Below are positions 7,201 to 59,045 of a stretch of 64,000 bases of DNA, in pieces; positions within the stretch are counted from its first letter, which is position 1, and every line of letters begins with the position of its first letter. The notes beneath the pieces are model-generated. The model made no database searches and was not told the DNA's origin. It was given only the letters and a program-made list of their open reading frames with translations. The translations under genes and the position numbers were made by a program. The DNA lies in the NCBI RefSeq assembly GCF_037042905.1, contig NC_087245.1, forward strand, positions 17,238,001 through 17,302,000, read 5' to 3'. Source of the DNA: Lytechinus pictus (lineage: Eukaryota).

Positions 7201-10200
7201 TGCTAATTTATGCATAAATCATACTTTTTGCTCTAATTCACTAAATAAAGCTCCTAGAATGCTAATTTTTTGTAAAAATATTCTTTGTAGCATTCTTAAC
7301 AATCACAATTAAAAAAACTTTGGTTTGGAAATCAATTTCTTATGTATTTTATTGTTTTATGTATTTCTTTGTTTTTTTACTTTTTGTTTTCTATTGCTTT
7401 TTCAATAGAAATCGTTCCAGACTTAATTCTGATCATAAACAAGGCAAAATTAATTAAGTTTCATCAGTAAAAGAAGAAATAATGATACATTTATGAATTT
7501 TGGCTAAATACACAATTTGCATTGGATTTGTACATGAAATCACGTTTATGAGCAATTTTGGGTCTGATATGCACTTACATAATGTTGCGTAATGTCGTAA
7601 CCGTGTACCCGGGCGTCACAAATTTGGTCTCAAAATTTGCGCGAGACTTGAAAGTAAAATGTCAGTGAGCAGCGAGGTCAAAAAATTTTGCGCAGCAGAT
7701 ATATCGCGAAAATTGTCGAGGGGGGGGGGCCATTATGGCCCCCCCCCCCCGGGAGAATTAGGGTTAAATATCTCAGATTGCATAGTGTTAGAGTTAGGAT
7801 TGTAATAGAGTTTTTGGTTCAGAATAATGTAGGATTAGGGTTTATTTAGGAAGTTAAGTTTATGACTGGCTTAACATACATATTTTCCATCAGAGCAAAT
7901 GTCATGGAACCCTTTGAGATTGATCTTCAACCCATCTTTTGAGATACTTGTGAAATACACATGAGATACTTCACATATAAAGTACCGGTATACTTTCAAG
8001 ATACTTATGAGAGGTGAATTATATACTAAAGGGCTAGTTAAAAGACACATATGAGATACAAGTTTCAAATTTGTTAGATATCAATGAGACAGTAATATAA
8101 CAGAAAATAATGAGACACTGAGATGGTTATGAGCATTGACACTTGCTGGGTACTAATGATATACAAAGGATTTCAAAACATCATATTTCATTGGGAGGAA
8201 TCAAATTAGGCTGTAAAAATTATCAAGATTGAGTAACACAATTATGAAAGATAACCTTTTCTTAACTAGAGTGAAATGGGTACATACTCCCCCTCCCACT
8301 CTTTTCTTGTTACTTTTCAATTTGTCTTTATAAAACTGTGATTACAATTTACTGCCTAGAAAAAGGAAGGAGCGAGTGTAACAACATCAATCTTCTAATA
8401 CCCGATCATGAAAAATGTCAAACTTGAATTCTTAAGACAAACCTGCATGATTTTCTGAAGGATTCTGGGTAATGAGAGATGTCCCATCATGCTATTCAAA
8501 ACATGCCTTGTCAGCTCTTTGAAACCTGGCAGAAGAAAGTACAAAATTACCATGCTTTTAGAAAACAAATAAATAAATATTTAACACTTCGACTGGTTAT
8601 TGTCTGATTAAAATGAAAAAAAAAGAGCAGGGCCTTACAGGTAAATCTATTAGGAAATGATGATTTAGAAAAGGTAATGTTCGAGTGATAAATTATTTTA
8701 GTTGAGATTCATGTATGAAATTATAAAAAACACACATATATTCTAAAAAGTAATTACCGGTACTTGAACAAATATTACAAATGACATAAATGCATAATCA
8801 TTCCTTGGTTACAAATTAAATGCTGAGAAAAAAAAAAACATCTAGACTCATAAGATTAACTAAAACATTTAGATTCTTACTTTCAAACTGGGTCTCATTA
8901 AAGGATGGTTTGAGTCTTCTCTGTGTTGTCATCATCAGATCCAAGAGGGGAAACCATAATGTCTAGGGAAATTACATGAAATATGAAAGTAAAATTCATA
9001 ACTTTGAATGTTACCACCTAAATTACAACAAAATACAATTTTCACTTTACACTAGTATCATTGTCATCTCAATCACAATAGTGAAGATGATGTATCATAA
9101 TCGTCATCGTCATCGCCATCGTCATCGTCATCACCATCCCCATCGTCGTCATCACCATCCCCATCGTCGTCATCACCATCACCATCACCATCACCATCAC
9201 CACCATCACCATCGTCATCACCATCATCATCATCAATATCTTCATCATCATCATCATCTTCATCATCACCACCACCCAAACTGCATTATCTATCTAATCA
9301 TCATCAACATTATCGCCATCATTATCACTTGCATTGCCATCGCATCATCCTCATCATAACCATCTCCAGTCACCATCAGCAACCTCAAATTAATGTCAAC
9401 ATCATTCAGGTTTGATGTGTTTACCTCTCGGCCTTCTTCATCTAACTTTGGTGAGTTCCTCTGGCAAAGTTGAACAAGAACCATTAGAACTACTTGCACA
9501 TTGGACAGACCCAAGGTGATATCCATTCCTACAAGAACAAGAACACCAACAAATAACATCAGAATTGTACAAATGTGACACTCGGATAAATTTTAGATAG
9601 AAAAGCAGAAACAGCCTATCACCAAAAGTGTCAGAATACCACAATATTTTAATTGAACAATCAACCATTGGGTAATTTCAGGTTCAGTTTTGGTGTTGAG
9701 AGCATGAATCATGTAGGCCGACTACCACAATAATGTGGGATGGGTGTTGGAGTTTCCTTTGAGAGCATGGAGTGTTAAGTACACTATCATTTTCGTGAAC
9801 GTATAAGGAATATGATTCCTATTATTCCATATAAGTGTGGAATCAACTTATTGTTCATTCTTGATTTAAACTCAGATTAAAGCTAAATGACAGTAGTTGC
9901 AGTAAAATACTGATTTCCTGAGGAAGTCTGTAAAACCAAGTTTAAGTATTACTATATCATCGTGGATCTAGATCTGGTAGTTACATAAACTGAACTTTGT
10001 GAAATCATAATATCTAAGCTAAAAAACGATCATACTGAAGATCGCCAACACAGATAGGCACACGTGGGACAGTGTATTATTATTGCTAGAATAAAGACCC
10101 GACGGAAGTGACAGAATCCGCGCTTATTTTGCTTATTTCTTAGCAATTACACAATTTCTTCCAGAATCCTTTGGCACATATTTTTTATTCATACAAACAG

Positions 10201-52447: not shown

Positions 52448-54945
52448 CCCTTATAAAAAGTACCATGGTTTTACCATATTACTTTTACTATGGTAATACC
52501 ATAGTATTTCCAAAGTATGGTAAATTGACAGATGAAGGCAGTACATTTACCATGGATTTACCATAGTTGTTCCATAGTATTACTATGGTTGTGCCATAGT
52601 ATTGACATGGTTGTACCTGTCACTTGTTTGTTGCCTGTTTAAAATTTTAAATCGATTTACTTGTTAAATAACTTAAATAACATGGTTACCAATAACATAA
52701 GAAACAGTAAATACTTTTTGACGTTTATAATTCAACTGTTTAATTCAATATTCTGATATCCTAAATCAGCATACAATGGCCAGATGAATAATTACATCCA
52801 ATTTGGAAAAGGCATATGGAGTTTCTATTGCATAATTTAGGGCAGGAAAATAAATATCCTGAATTACAAGAAATGTAATATGAAAACCTGTAACTTTAGC
52901 ATATAATAATATTACTTTCAGCAACTTGATAATTTAAGTTCGGTTTCTTGTGAAAAGAAACTGAGTTCCGGTATAAACTTTATGATTTCAAATATTATGG
53001 TTCAGTCATACTTTCTTCGATGAAAGCGGGTGACAATACCACTGTCATATACTGGCGAACGAAAGTTCTCTTGAGTCGACAGTTGGGGTGTATATGAAGA
53101 CAATCACCAGGAACACAGCGTAGTTCCTCAATACCATTCACTCAGAAGTGTTGAATGTCGACGGCGAGTCCGTCGAAGACCCAATTACATTGGAATTATG
53201 TAGTGTCATCAGGCCCAGAGCCCCGTGTTGTATCTCTTGACAAGGATATTACTCTCTTAGCCCAGCTAAGCGGTAGACCAAAACTGCGAGGATATCTTGG
53301 TAATTCCGGTCCTTGTTGCTGATCATGGTGTGTGTGACAGTCATGAGGATTCTAGGAATAGCCAGCCTGAAAATGCCAGTGTTGAATCGTTCAACCCTCT
53401 TCACACCGGTCTCAACACTCGAGACACATCAGCAACATCTCTCACACAGGAAGAGGTGAAAACCTAACCTTCCCAAACCAAGGTTAAAATATGTTCTGCT
53501 CAGGGTACCTTGCTCAAAATGCTCACTCCAACACACACCTCAATTTTCAGCCAATAATCTCACTGCCTGTCCCTATCACCAAGCAACAGAAAACAATTTA
53601 ATTGCATTCCTTTTGGGGGGGGGTGAAAACAAAATTACCGTGAACTATTACCTAAAAATGCAGCGACCTCATTTTGTGTCAACTCTGTGCAGTGTAGCAG
53701 AAAGGAAAAAGAATTAAGCAAAAAAAAAAAAGAATAGTGTGCAAGCTCCTAACAATGCAGCAGCCTTTTTTGTGTGCAAGCTCCCTACCCTACAGCACCT
53801 GAGGAATGTAAGCAGCTGGTTAAGCATTATATGCAACAAAGAAGTAAGATTAGGACAAAATAAAAACAAAAATAAGTCATGTCCAAGGTGACAGTACCAT
53901 AGTATTACTATGGTTGTACCATAGTATTACCATGGTTGTACTTTAGTATTACCATGGTTCTACCAGTCATTACCAAGGTACTTCTATGTCATGAGTGGGC
54001 CCCATGTAGGTTCATTAAAGAAATAATGATCAGTGTCAAGTATCATTAAGGACCATGGTATTACCATAGTAACCATGGTATTACTATGGTATCTCTTGAT
54101 CTGGACTTCACTCATGAATATTCATTACAACAATAAATGACCAAAATTTTAGCAAATATATCTATAACAATTAATGTGTTTATGCAGTGATTCCACCACG
54201 AAAAGTTTTAGAAAAATGTGTGGTTTATATATCATATTAATCATAATCATGACATTTAATTTTGAACGAATGGCATAGGATTGAATATGGAAAACTGTTA
54301 ACTATAATTTTTAAAGTTTTGTGAACTCGCCCAATATATAAAAGTCAATGACATGTCTCTGTGGTGGCGTGCGCCTGTAATCCAAGCTTTGGGGAAGTTA
54401 CAAATTGATGCAGAGGTTCGAGCCCTGGTCACGTCTTTCGGATGGTGACGTTAAAGGTCGGTCCCAGACGTAAATAATCATATCTGATTGATACACGTCT
54501 GACAAAACTCAAATACACACATCTGTGGATAGGTGTAGGATAGGATTAGGATTATGTAGGATTTTAGGATAGGATAAGATGATATGGCTTAGAGTATAGA
54601 GTTGTAAAATGTGATTCAATGACCTTGACACTAATTATTATTTTTTTTTAGTGAACTCTCATCGGGCCCATATGGGACCCACATGGAATCCAGATGGCCA
54701 ACCCACGCGCATCATGAAAGATTATGGTACAACCATAGTAATACTATGTTACAACTATGGTAATACTTTGGTACAACCATACATAATAATATTATGGTAC
54801 AACCATAATAATATTATTGTACAACTATGGCAAATCCGTGGTAAATGTACTGCCTTCATTCGTCAATTTACCATACTATGGCAATACTATGGTATTACCA
54901 TTGTAAAAGTACTATGGTAAAACCACGGTACTTTTTTTATAAGGG
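52448..54945. mobile_element. Non-autonomous DNA element with CCC...GGG termini, long TIR and ACCATAGTA-type subrepeats
   Basis: CCCTTATAAAAAGTACC... is inverted at ...GGTACTTTTTTTATAAGGG; arms pair for >120 bp. Confidence 0.75.
54358..54528 (+). mobile_element. SINE-like insertion with a 7SL/Alu-domain-like head
   Basis: GTGGTGGCGTGCGCCTGTAATCCAAGCT head; B-box GGTTCGAGCCC at 54415-54425; 3' stem-loop; (CA)n tail; TCTGTGG direct repeat at both ends. Confidence 0.6.
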
Positions 54946-54946
54946 C

Positions 54947-55141
54947 CTGCGCAAATCACTTTCACGAACTTTTCAAATGTAAGTGGTGCTCACTCATGCG
55001 GAAAGTTTTTTTGACAGTTATATCGTCATTTGCTTCAAGAGACCTGTACCAATGTTTAAATGTTGGAGAAGCTTCAGGATATTACAATGTATAATTTTAC
55101 ATGATTTTTTTCTAAGTGTAAACTTTTTTTGATACGCACTG
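54947..55141 (-). mobile_element. Truncated inverted copy of the Tc1-like element at 46487
   Basis: Reverse complement of ~46487-46682, ending GATACGCACTGta. Confidence 0.8.
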
Positions 55142-56139: not shown

Positions 56140-57873
56140 TCACTCTTGTGACTCCCGGAAGATGTAGAGTCTGTCTGGTGTACAGAAAGCTATCTCCCCA
56201 CTCTTGAATGTTTGGAGAAAGTACCAGTTTCTTTCCGGGATTTGAAAGTGGAAGTCGCTGATGATGGTTTTCATCGTTTTGAGCTCGCTTGTGTATAGGT
56301 AGATTTTTGCAACACCTTCCTCATGGTTGACCCATGCAATGAGAACCGTGTCATCAGTGCACAAACATGGGAATCCAGAGAGGTCTTCTTTGGTGACGCT
56401 ATGCAGGATGGTTCCTGATAAACTGTTGATCACCTTTATGGTATTCGAATCCTTTACCAAGATCCTGTTGCTTGTCGACGATGAGAAGATCTGCCGAGGT
56501 TCGTATCCATCACACTTTATCTTTCGGACTGGTATTCCACCTTCTGCATTATACATGTGTATCTCTTTTAGTTTCCTATAACCAATGAAAATGTGACCAT
56601 CTCGATCCTGGGAAAGGCCACCAGAACCACCCTCCTCATCATCCAAAGAAAAGAATGACAGGACCAGCTTCTTACATTTTCGTGTATAGAGAGTGATTTT
56701 GTTCTTTATGTTACGCACGATGTAGCAGCAATCTGACCTATATTGTAAACAACGAACTATAACATTTTTTAGAACTATGCCTTGAATTATACCATCAGCA
56801 GAATATGTGACTATTCCTCCCATATGGCAACCAACAGAGATGGTGTTGTTTGGAGATACAGCCAGAGTATTCATACTATTGGCTGATGGTAGCTGCTTTT
56901 CTGCTACCAATCTCCATATCTGTTTTCCTCGGCGAACGCAGCCCAAGAGATTTCTGGCCGTTCGGTTGTCGCTTTCAAAGTGAATGCGTTCACTTTGGTG
57001 AGTCAATCTTCTTAGCCCTTCCTGATCAGGTTCTGATTCCTTCAAAAGCCTTTCCAGCTCTTCACAAAGGGTTTCGTGTGCTTTCAGAGGAGAGGCTTTC
57101 TGCAGGAAACATTTTAAACCCCCTCTAACTAGCTCACTAGCCTTATTGATATATGTCACTTGCTGATTAGTGATCTTTTCCATTTCTAGTAATGACATTT
57201 TTATCTTCTTCAGTTCATTCTCAACTTTGCTCTTAAGGAGCTCCTTACGCTCCATCAGCTCTGCAACATATTTCTCAAAAGCTTGGTTGATGTCGTCATG
57301 GAGTTCCTTCTCTACCTTCTCACATGTTTCCCATTGTTCAGCTATACAGGCAATGTATTTTTCGATGTCACATATCTTTGTCGCTGCTTTTGCTAACAGT
57401 TCATCAACATTGCTTTTCACGGTATCTTTATGGCGTTCAGCTTCCATGACAGTGTGTCCCTCCTGCACATGCTCACCAATGCCACACTTGTAGCATATGT
57501 ACTTCCCGCAGTTGGCGCAGAAACATTCCTCGCCACCATCCAAATGTTCATCGCACGTACAGGGTCTCTTCAATGTAACGTCAGCTCGTTGCGATTCATT
57601 AATTTCTTTTTCACTCTCAGCCGTTACTACCGCTACCATAGACTGGATTGCTTTGCTCATCGGCAATCCACCAACGTCACCATCTGGAATTGGTGTGGTT
57701 TCTCGGCATACTGGACAGAAGATGTTTTGTTTATCCTGTTGAGAGTTGAGTAGAAACTCAAGACAACCCCTGCAGAAGGTATGCGAGCATGACAAAATTC
57801 GATGATCCTTCAGAAAGCCCAGGCAGATTGGACACTCTAGGTTCATACCAATAGATTCTCTGAGTGAAGCCAT
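56140..57873 (-). CDS. TRIM-family E3 ubiquitin ligase (RING C3HC4, B-box, coiled coil, putative NHL-like beta-propeller), 577 aa, single coding exon
   Basis: Open frame from MASLRESIG (ATG 57873, preceded by a cag acceptor at 57882-57884) to the stop at 56140. RING CPIC..CSHTFCRGC..CPVC; B-box CDEH..CANCGKYICYKC..EH..GH; heptad-rich helical middle; beta-strand-rich C-terminus. Confidence 0.9.
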   Translation of the reverse strand: MASLRESIGMNLECPICLGFLKDHRILSCSHTFCRGCLEFLLNSQQDKQNIFCPVCRETTPIPDGDVGGLPMSKAIQSMVAVVTAESEKEINESQRADVTLKRPCTCDEHLDGGEECFCANCGKYICYKCGIGEHVQEGHTVMEAERHKDTVKSNVDELLAKAATKICDIEKYIACIAEQWETCEKVEKELHDDINQAFEKYVAELMERKELLKSKVENELKKIKMSLLEMEKITNQQVTYINKASELVRGGLKCFLQKASPLKAHETLCEELERLLKESEPDQEGLRRLTHQSERIHFESDNRTARNLLGCVRRGKQIWRLVAEKQLPSANSMNTLAVSPNNTISVGCHMGGIVTYSADGIIQGIVLKNVIVRCLQYRSDCCYIVRNIKNKITLYTRKCKKLVLSFFSLDDEEGGSGGLSQDRDGHIFIGYRKLKEIHMYNAEGGIPVRKIKCDGYEPRQIFSSSTSNRILVKDSNTIKVINSLSGTILHSVTKEDLSGFPCLCTDDTVLIAWVNHEEGVAKIYLYTSELKTMKTIISDFHFQIPERNWYFLQTFKSGEIAFCTPDRLYIFRESQE

Positions 57874-59045
57874 CTTGTACCCTGGAACAGAGATTTCAAA
57901 CGATTTTAAAATAAAAAATAGAAAATACAAAAACGTACAGCGACGAAAAAGTAACTAACAAAACTTGTAGAATATAAAGAGAAAAAAGAAAGAGAAGGGT
58001 GAAATATGATATTATTTTCTGAATATTATGTCAATATCAATCACAACATTGGATTTTTATAATAAAGTGTCGATATTTTTGCTCGCTCGCGTCACTTGCT
58101 CGCAATTTTTTTGTTCATTATGCCACTGTGCTAAAACATCCAGTATTTCCAATGATTCCTTTGGATTATTCCCAAAACTGACCCCCTAAAAACAGCTAGA
58201 CTCGTTCCCAAAACTGACCGCATAAAACATATCCCATTCCCCGTAAAATCGGAAACACGCATGCGGTACAGATGACCATCTGTGTGGGGATTGGGGGAGG
58301 GGGTTGACCTAAATCTCATGTCTACCTTTTGGTAAGTAAGCTCGGTAGATCTACCCATATTACCAACATGATGCACAAGAGTTCCAGTGCGTTGAAACAT
58401 TGAGGAAAATACTTAAACATATTGATAGCATGCATGATAGAAAAACTGCAAAATAATCTGCCTTAACTATATAAAGAAAACACGCATTTGTGTTCAAGAC
58501 ACTCAATCTGGTGTAGCTTACCTAAAAGACTTCTTTTAGTCAAATGGGAGAAAAATCGAGTTAAAAATCCAACAATCAGCTTTTTCAACATTTGGGAATT
58601 TATAACTGCTCAGTCATGACACACAAATAAGTATGCTAACATTGATGAGTACGGATAGTAGAAGCCAACATGATTGCGCAATGTTTTTTGTTGTTTTGTT
58701 TTTTGTTAATTTGATGTTTTTGGTTTTCCAATGGCGGATGTGGATGATGAATGTGACAGTGACTCATGACCTACACTGTTTCCATTTCCTTCCTGACTTG
58801 GATCATTTCAGCACACTTTCCTGGGACGAAGAGAGTAGAGACCGTATGGATCAATAGAACCCATTGGTAGAAAACCTCTACACCTATGATATGATTAGTA
58901 TGAAAGGCGAGCTTAGAATCCCATTGTAGCACTAGAATCTTCGCCAAAATTGTAAACACCCCAACCTGGACCAAGGGGATGTTTCATTACATTAGTGTTT
59001 GGGAACTTCAACCAACTTTACGAATGACTGCAATATAGCAAGCCA

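Follow-up and report, generated by a model that had tools for sequence, protein, structure and literature searches.

Short interspersed elements (SINEs) derived from 7SL RNA include Alu, the most successful human mobile element, and independent origins of such elements are considered extremely rare. In the available text of a February 2026 account (PMC13023118), 7SL-derived SINEs are confined, as far as is known, to supraprimates, hagfish, and one shrew mole, and in the accessible descriptions all known 7SL SINEs have lost ~183 nt from the center while both the 5′ and 3′ parts of the Alu domain are kept (PMC13023118, PMC7245038). Moldovan, Yin and Moran report, in the part of their paper available, that Alu retrotransposition requires a 5′ Alu domain of 46 nt, to which SRP9/14 binds, and that Alu depends on its 3′ Alu domain solely for the B box (PMC11760393). 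The 5′ promoter element of human 7SL is placed at nt 6-15 in the available text of PMC7245038. Here we describe a SINE in a 64,000-nt stretch of the sea urchin Lytechinus pictus (assembly GCF_037042905.1, contig NC_087245.1, positions 17,238,001 to 17,302,000, forward strand), the whole of which we call the window. The element, at 54364-54521, is very probably a truncated member of a composite, young SINE family whose 7SL 5′ domain was grafted onto an older SINE body.

An earlier note, made from the letters of the window alone, had proposed a chimeric SINE with a 7SL head, a SINE core, and a tail of the long interspersed element (LINE) type. Every string that it named is present base for base: GTGGTGGCGTGCGCCTGTAATCCAAGCT occupies 54361-54388 and is directly followed by TTGGGGAAG, the RNA polymerase III (Pol III) B box GGTTCGAGCCC lies at 54415-54425, GTCAC...GTGAC at 54428-54449, and ACACACA at 54515-54521. 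CAGACGT (54465-54471) is complementary to ACGTCTG (54495-54501), and the heptamer TCTGTGG occurs at both 54358-54364 and 54522-54528. All parts of the element are on the plus strand. Its 5′-truncated, 7SL-derived head spans 54364-54398, corresponding to consensus positions 11-45 in alignments to host 7SL genes and full-length copies, and retains, of the Alu 5′ domain, some of helix 3 together with the GUAAU linker and helix 4. The head is followed by a middle segment (54399-54427) that carries the B box and aligns to a relic SINE described below, and then by a short Deu/Nin-like core, GTCACGTCTTTCGGATGGTGACGTTAAAGGTCGGTCC (54428-54464). A two-tier 3′ stem-loop (54465-54501) pairs CAGACGT with ACGTCTG around AUCAUA....(U)GAUUGAU, with both stems present in the minimum-energy and centroid folds. 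The element ends in ACAAAACTCAAATA and a short (CA)n tail (54502-54521), the length of which varies among copies.

The host genome contains seven full 7SL genes that score 272-283 bits with the Rfam Metazoa_SRP model and begin with ACCGGGCGTTGTGGCGTGCGCCTGTAATCCAGCTACTTGGAGGTCGGGG; the gene on contig 12 (L037) begins ACTGGG...CCAGCTGCTTTGGAAGTCGGGG. The SINE starts with ACTGGGCGTTGTGGCGTGCGCCTGTAATCC, exactly as L037 does, placing its start at 7SL +1. The first 30 nt of the SINE consensus are identical to L037, and 41 of 45 positions match overall, with two mismatches and two gaps. An older subfamily aligns to host 7SL over 47 nt, such that full-length heads comprise 45-47 nt of 7SL. The 7SL head was therefore borne out against the host's own genes, beyond the remembered 7SL sequence with which it had been compared in the earlier note. 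The closing pairs of helix 2 are ACU/AGU in both the SINE and L037 and ACC/GGU in the other 7SL genes, and because of this common feature the 7SL source resembled L037. Metazoa_SRP matched older SINE copies at locus L039 with 34.6 and 31.9 bits and an early-type copy (L079) with 28.9 bits, the latter as a local match to model positions 1-44; E values among these older and early copies were 4e-6 and 1.2e-5. The truncated window copy scored 12.6 bits (E = 0.51). When isolated, the heads fold into two hairpins split by GUAA(U), as do the first 45 nt of true 7SL, and helices 2, 3, and 4 are all still able to form in every subfamily.

The similarity to 7SL ends with the head. The SINE beyond nt 45/47 aligned to the remaining 7SL with a local score of 15, compared with a mean of 15.2 for 300 shuffles. 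The B-box region, suspected by eye to be further 7SL-derived sequence, was rejected by the same kind of shuffle test. Judged by sequence alone, these comparisons show that only the head is 7SL and that the rest of the SINE is foreign to it. The identity of ~91% (41/45) is confined to 45-47 nt and so falls short of the similarity to a parent RNA that the SINEBase definition calls for (PMC3531059); elements with demonstrated Pol III transcription are admitted there as exceptions. As in SINE1 elements, the 5′ part is homologous to the 7SL 5′ end; the retention of both 5′ and 3′ Alu-domain parts after a central deletion, also a SINE1 feature, is lacking here, as there is no 7SL past nt 45/47.

Two of the seven 7SL genes lie on the contig of the window, one 31 kb before it (C1:17206393-17206690, minus strand) and the other 107 kb after it (C1:17408993-17409290, plus strand). 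The host genome also holds an SRP14 exon (30.6 bits). On contig 13, Pfam Bindin matched a two-exon locus with 236.7 and 53.1 bits; bindin is a sperm protein of sea urchins, and the match marks the host as an echinoderm of the sea-urchin kind.

The origin of the remaining body was traced through copies in which it stands behind other sequences. Contigs from putative RNA libraries labeled "sea urchin metagenome" and "echinoderm metagenome" cover just 54415/54428-54521 and carry different letters upstream; these two are the sole labeled runs that share part of the element. Junctions of the kinds seen in these contigs were sought in the host genome, where the X15-type junction had no matches. The X16-type junction was found in 61 places, 58 of which are older 7SL-headed subfamilies and three of which (L078-L080) are of another type. 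L079 and L080 represent an early form of the 7SL-headed SINE with the middle segment TACAAACTGATTCAGCCGAGGACGCAGGTTCGAAACTGAATCG, and because their flanks are shared, they are one duplicated insertion. L078 is without a 7SL head and gave no Rfam tRNA or SRP match. L078 and L079 nonetheless align over 52 columns, from AAACTG through the B box and into the start of the core, with a score of 53 (shuffle mean of 17, maximum of 25). The middle segment alone scored 32, compared with a shuffle maximum of 23. Because this relic without a 7SL head shares them with L079, the middle segment and B box were inherited from an older SINE, and the join between 7SL and the older SINE reads ...GGAAGT / TAC / AAACTG.... 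The proposed chimera of a 7SL head and an older SINE is thus supported by the relic alignment.

Downstream of the join, the B-box motif stands at consensus position 62, and the consensus has no internal TTTT. The core GTCACGTCTTTCGGATGGTGACGTTAAAGGTCGGTCCC resembles the Deu part of the bivalve element BivaMD-SINE1 in the part of PMC4824008 available (supplement 2), with ~30 of 40 columns alike by eye, in keeping with the suggestion of a deuterostome SINE core. We considered and rejected a Meta-domain identity, as the Meta-domain sequences in the available supplement are unlike the core. The earlier note had described a UUCG-capped hairpin here. A hairpin does exist; its arms are interrupted (4 + 3 pairs) and enclose a UUUCG loop, in place of 9-bp arms with a plain UUCG tetraloop. 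The two-tier 3′ stem-loop is the least variable region of the element, diverging by 0.3% and 2.4% in the two samples of copies described below, and is presumed to be the recognition site for the reverse transcriptase of a partner LINE.

The window copy first matches the family consensus at position 11 or 12, and since full-length copies begin with ACTGGGCGTTGTGGCG, it is 10 nt short at its 5′ end. The 7SL match previously drawn from 54361 is a real head, but the 5′ TCTGTGG overlaps its start and the first 10 nt of the element are gone. The heptamer forms a 5′ target-site duplication (TSD) at 54358-54364 and a 3′ TSD at 54522-54528, both on the plus strand; the last G of the 5′ heptamer (54364) could alternatively belong to the element as its initial base. 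Contigs in set X2, from an organism coded B, carry a single TCTGTGG and lack the element. They join 54362 to 54546, the 26 letters between being window 54523-54545, and another X2 contig reads ...GTCTCTGTGGAT... over the site, an uninterrupted target with one TCTGTGG. These contigs support the suggestion that the heptamer is a TSD. They may be orthologous or paralogous to the site, the latter being a caveat that arises because the window copy sits in repetitive flanking sequence; in either case, the sequence before insertion and the 7-bp duplication are shown. The 7SL-headed family is abundant in organism B, with 3699 contigs aligned, and their loose ends read ...ACTGGGCGTT before 54364. Loss of its first 10 nt deprived the window copy of some of the 5′ promoter element and some of helices 2-3, and it is most likely inert. 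No sequencing run contained half or more of the words sampled from a 701-nt stretch. The runs consist of assembled contigs, in which depth over the SINE pools all copies and transcript ends are not visible.

We searched the host's own assembly (811.7 Mb, 368 contigs) and scored 40 of 1389 first-look candidates. These yielded 48 matching places, 41 of which were 98-100% identical over ~160 nt, well beyond what chance would give. A low-stringency BLAST of the window, in which only imperfect or short matches were examined, revealed no second copy; the statement that one copy is visible thus holds for the window and does not extend to the genome, where the family numbers about 1,500 copies. Whole-genome pattern counts, for each of which the reversed-pattern control was zero, gave 1473 matches for the 7SL-type head and 1475 for the tail (both with at most two mismatches) and 1610 for the core (at most three mismatches). 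Because head and tail counts are virtually equal, the tail appears to occur almost only behind a 7SL head in this genome. Full-length units are 168-178 bp long, and a flank-anchored comparison of 28 copies has them starting with the motif given above and ending in (CA)n.

The copies fall into a subfamily series that runs from the relic lacking a 7SL head through an early chimera and a form with a duplicated B box to a streamlined young form. With at most one mismatch, the young junction with a single GGTTCGAGCCC, which is the type in the window, was found 542 times, and the duplicated B-box junction GTTCGAGGTTCGA 488 times, the exact GAAG form occurring in 32. We measured divergence from the consensus in 62 full-length copies from two samples, both of which are biased by retrieval. 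The 35 copies of the best-hit sample diverged by 0.8% in the head, 1.7% in the middle segment, 1.1% in the core, and 0.3% in the tail; the corresponding values for 27 copies from other samples were 7.9%, 8.6%, 5.8%, and 2.4%. Head variation in the 27-copy sample lay nearly all at positions 33-45, and position 1 alone among the first 31 varied in at least 10% of copies.

Most copies are dispersed singletons with differing flanks, accompanied by a few tandem arrays, and the family is short, interspersed, and repeated, as the SINEBase definition describes (PMC3531059). Among 66 elements with an intact 3′ end (a biased sample), 19 lack the first three consensus positions or more, and 11 lack the first 30 or more. 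TSDs of at least 5 nt were found in 10 of the 66, compared with a mean of 2.1 and a maximum of 8 for permuted flanks (500 trials), and TSDs of at least 7 nt in three, compared with 0.22 and a maximum of 2. The strict automatic rule used for these counts missed the 12-nt TSD of L017 and the TSD of the window copy, both of which are visible by eye.

Head-to-tail arrays of two to six SINE units are present at L008 (G000 C18:3952425-3953037), L025 (C19:10865245-10865943), and L039 (1501-1868). The 5-nt spacer CCTTA recurs between the units of L025, an arrangement resembling the TSD-(SINE-TSD)n arrays of bivalve SINEs (PMC11481361). A different kind of array lies at G000 C18:3148582-3170645, where at least 13 matches to a tail fragment (TCTCAGTG + ATTGATACACGTCTGACAAAACTTAAA) recur on one strand with a spacing of ~1.71 kb. 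Here, a truncated SINE tail was amplified inside a longer tandem repeat. L012 and L026 are copies of one repeated host sequence (...CTCTTCTTGCACTTCACTAGGTGGTACG...), each with a SINE at sites a few bases apart; they look like independent insertions in paralogous targets, each being the empty site of the other.

SINE copies also occur upstream of 7SL genes on G000 contig 10 (~7.91-7.92 Mb), namely at 877-1046 and 1290-1459 of L031, 1294-1463 of L035, and 1315-1463 of L036, loci in which 7SL starts at position 1501. Each of these three tandem 7SL genes is preceded by a SINE that is oriented as the gene is, shares 81-89% identity with the young consensus, and stops ~35-40 bp short of the gene. 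In the 1.5-kb flanks of the other four 7SL genes, on contigs 1 and 12, no SINE occurs. The contig-10 copies reflect either one insertion in a 7SL promoter region followed by duplication of the unit or a preference for the neighborhoods of Pol III genes.

These data suggest how the family may have arisen and spread. A reverse transcriptase copying the RNA of the older SINE would have switched template to 7SL RNA near position 45 and continued to the 7SL 5′ end. The 7SL-type 5′ element would direct Pol III to begin transcription at the first base, and the inherited B box would complete the internal promoter. The stem-loop and (CA)n could then serve as the handle for a stringent-type LINE reverse transcriptase. 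By analogy with what has been proposed for Alu, the 7SL 5′ domain may bind SRP9/14 and carry the RNA to ribosomes making the LINE protein. The fuller proposal, to which we give roughly even credence, is that the sea-urchin lineage independently built a SINE on the 45-47-nt 7SL 5′ domain, which equals the minimal SRP9/14-binding Alu unit, and combined it with an older B box, a Deu-type core, and a LINE-type tail.

Several results weigh against this account or against single parts of it. The form of the tail is plausible for a LINE-mobilized element, with its stem-loop, (CA)n, 5′ truncations, and short TSDs. However, tail searches of the host genome for a match with a non-SINE upstream region (at most two mismatches) found no LINE that ends in the SINE tail. 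The 61 zero-mismatch tail matches among those listed were all SINE variants or truncated copies, and 46 tails with an upstream region unlike the SINE look like truncated copies or members of the 1.7-kb tandem array. Upstream of the tail-only copy L074, the sequence is single-copy. Open reading frames resembling reverse transcriptase lie near L075 and L076, and BLAST with the consensus detected no match to the SINE tail at their 3′ ends. TSDs were shorter than 5 nt in 56 of the 66 elements and are thus short or absent for most copies. The putative parent is represented by L078 alone: a DNA search of the host genome found no relatives of it, from which it follows that the parent SINE is all but gone from the genome, and the Rfam scan identified no RNA origin for its non-7SL head.

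The remaining contrary results concern the head and bear on an alternative in which the 7SL piece serves only as a promoter and 5′-end module, that is, an A-box-type element with a start site, SRP9/14 binding being irrelevant to the spread of the family. We regard this alternative as possible, though on balance doubtful. The youngest and largest subfamily, with its 542 junction matches, has lost two nucleotides of the helix-4 loop, which we take to be located at the loop-loop contact site of the Alu fold. A full-length young copy (L013) gave no Metazoa_SRP match at E ≤ 1, compared with 34.6 bits for older copies, and together with the lost loop nucleotides this argues against strict conservation of an SRP9/14-binding fold. 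The consensus also has no canonical tRNA-type A box, so some 5′ promoter element would be needed. Folding energies of the heads were no better than those of shuffles (z = -1.0 to +0.9), nor was that of the whole element (z = 0.16). The real 7SL 5′ end likewise did not differ from its shuffles; since neither the SINE heads nor true 7SL outperform shuffles, the energies are not evidence either way. A role limited to promotion is harder to reconcile with the near invariance of the first 31 positions in the 27 older or variant full-length copies and with the continued ability of helices 2, 3, and 4 to form in each subfamily. In addition, the captured 45-47 nt end where the 5′ Alu domain ends, close to the 46-nt minimum for SRP9/14 binding given in the available text of PMC11760393.

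Two further explanations question the family itself. If the likeness to 7SL arose by chance or convergence, the element would be an ordinary tRNA-derived SINE2, as its canonical tRNA-type B box GGTTCGAGCCC would allow; related bodies and tails carry other heads in other echinoderm samples, and the catalogued sea-urchin SINEs are listed as SINE2 in the accessible part of PMC4824008. Against this stand the 30 of 30 bases identical to host 7SL from +1 (41/45 overall), the Metazoa_SRP E values reported above, and the results of tRNA searches. ARAGORN found no tRNAs in 63 sequences (the 62 full-length copies and the consensus) or in three further sequences, and the SINE sequences scanned had no Rfam tRNA match at E ≤ 10 and hence no detectable tRNA head of the SINE2 kind. 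Neither tRNA nor 5S RNA was a better fit to the head than 7SL, and we consider this explanation extremely improbable. Weak Rfam matches to RAGATH-27, SCARNA7, and sn3060 were attributed to chance, and one to mir-1268 to a relationship to Alu. We find it only slightly less improbable that the copies are independent chimeric 7SL retropseudogenes, or units of a satellite or of miniature transposable elements with inverted repeats (MITEs), and not a self-propagating SINE family. Chimeric small-RNA retrocopies are known in mammals, according to the available text of PMC7245038, and tandem arrays exist at L008, L025, and L039, as does the 1.71-kb-period array that includes the tail. However, a single breakpoint and a single architecture are common to about 1,500 copies, their subfamilies are ordered, and they are mostly dispersed singletons with differing flanks, (CA)n tails, 5′ truncations, and, in some cases, TSDs. 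We therefore retain the composite SINE family with a 7SL head.

The SINE in the window interrupted an older host repeat at 53909-54781 (no strand assigned) flanked on either side by a 57-nt inverted arm (53909-53965 and 54725-54781); the two arms (I1) are 88% complementary. The flank at 54100-54357 had 434 first-look candidates in the host genome, and 39 other scored places were 80-84% identical to it. This older repeat, seen over 53894-54950, is made of 11- and 22-nt subrepeats related to ATGGTACAACCATAGTAATACT. Many scored places of its inner part tie in score, as might be expected if it forms a separate MITE-like or foldback family. At 56140-57954 on the minus strand, 1.6 kb from the SINE, lies an uninterrupted frame of 604 codons. 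Its product has a RING finger at the N-terminus (34.3 bits with Pfam zf-C3HC4 and 34.6 bits with zf-RING_UBOX) and then a coiled-coil-like stretch, and the frame resembles a TRIM-like gene without introns. A His/Arg-rich open frame at 8967-9359 derives from a CAY/CGY-type simple repeat and is probably a microsatellite and not a gene.

No description of a 7SL-headed sea-urchin SINE was found in the literature on 7SL SINEs, molluscs, and echinoderms, Repbase, Dfam, and SINEBase being outside that search, and three specific strings of the element had no occurrence in the literature searched. A catalogued sea-urchin "SINE2" entry may prove to have a 7SL head, the repeat catalogues lying outside our comparison. 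As far as the searchable literature goes, the sea-urchin family would be the first 7SL-derived SINE from an invertebrate and the first to keep only the 5′ domain of the Alu fold. The subfamily series preserves the steps of a SINE head swap. If the head binds SRP9/14, the family would constitute a natural replicate in which ribosome hijacking succeeds outside vertebrates and with a stringent-type LINE other than L1, and the 3′ Alu domain would be dispensable once a B box is supplied from elsewhere. Whether a 46-nt 5′ domain gives an edge via SRP9/14, also with non-L1 LINEs, thereby becomes a question testable in a tractable embryo.

The closest described element is SINE1-1_EBu (Ebu1-1) of the hagfish Eptatretus burgeri, which, in the available text of Kojima 2020 (PMC7245038), has a 7SL head and was born as a chimera of 7SL and an older SINE. 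It is likewise young, present in a few thousand copies, and independent of Alu, and its tail is of a non-L1 LINE type ending in a simple repeat. SINE1-1_EBu differs in keeping both 5′ and 3′ Alu-domain parts with the usual central deletion, whereas the sea-urchin SINE has only nt 1-45/47. Its tail matches a known RTE family (PMC7245038, available text), whereas our tail searches gave no LINE partner, and its host is a hagfish and not an invertebrate.

Alu, FLAM, B1, and Tu of Euarchontoglires and Urop of the shrew mole also begin with the 7SL 5′ Alu domain from +1, as described in the accessible part of PMC13023118. An internal Pol III promoter is presumed for these elements as for the sea-urchin SINE, and the SRP9/14-ribosome route has been proposed for Alu and is inferred here. 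The Alu-type elements consist of 7SL sequence only, with ~183 nt deleted, have the B box in the 7SL-derived part, end in poly(A), and are moved by L1 (PMC13023118, same part). In contrast, nothing in the B box, core, or tail of the sea-urchin SINE comes from 7SL, and its tail consists of a stem-loop with (CA)n.

The core GTCACG..TCTTTCGGATG..TTAAA..GGTCCC may connect the element to the DeuSINE/Nin group, to which the sea-urchin SINE2-3_SP and the bivalve BivaMD-SINE1 belong, and it resembles the Deu part of BivaMD-SINE1 by eye. The accessible part of PMC4824008 places SINE2-3_SP among the DeuSINEs and SINE2-1_SP and SINE2-2_SP among the MetaSINEs, and reports composite heads of 5S plus partial tRNA in some vertebrate DeuSINEs. 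The head exchange described there, in which the template switches to a different Pol III RNA, matches in concept the one proposed here. The sea-urchin element differs in that its head is 7SL and not tRNA or 5S, and only ~40 nt of core are shared, a comparison made with BivaMD-SINE1 and not with SINE2-3_SP. Finally, the 46-nt minimal Alu domain of SA46/AY46 has the same extent as the captured 7SL piece (45-47 nt; helices 2-4). SA46/AY46 is a laboratory construct driven by L1 in human cells (PMC11760393, available text), whereas the sea-urchin head is known here from its sequence. By analogy, with 45-47 nt of 7SL and a B box from another source, the sea-urchin element is a natural counterpart of the 46-nt-domain result.

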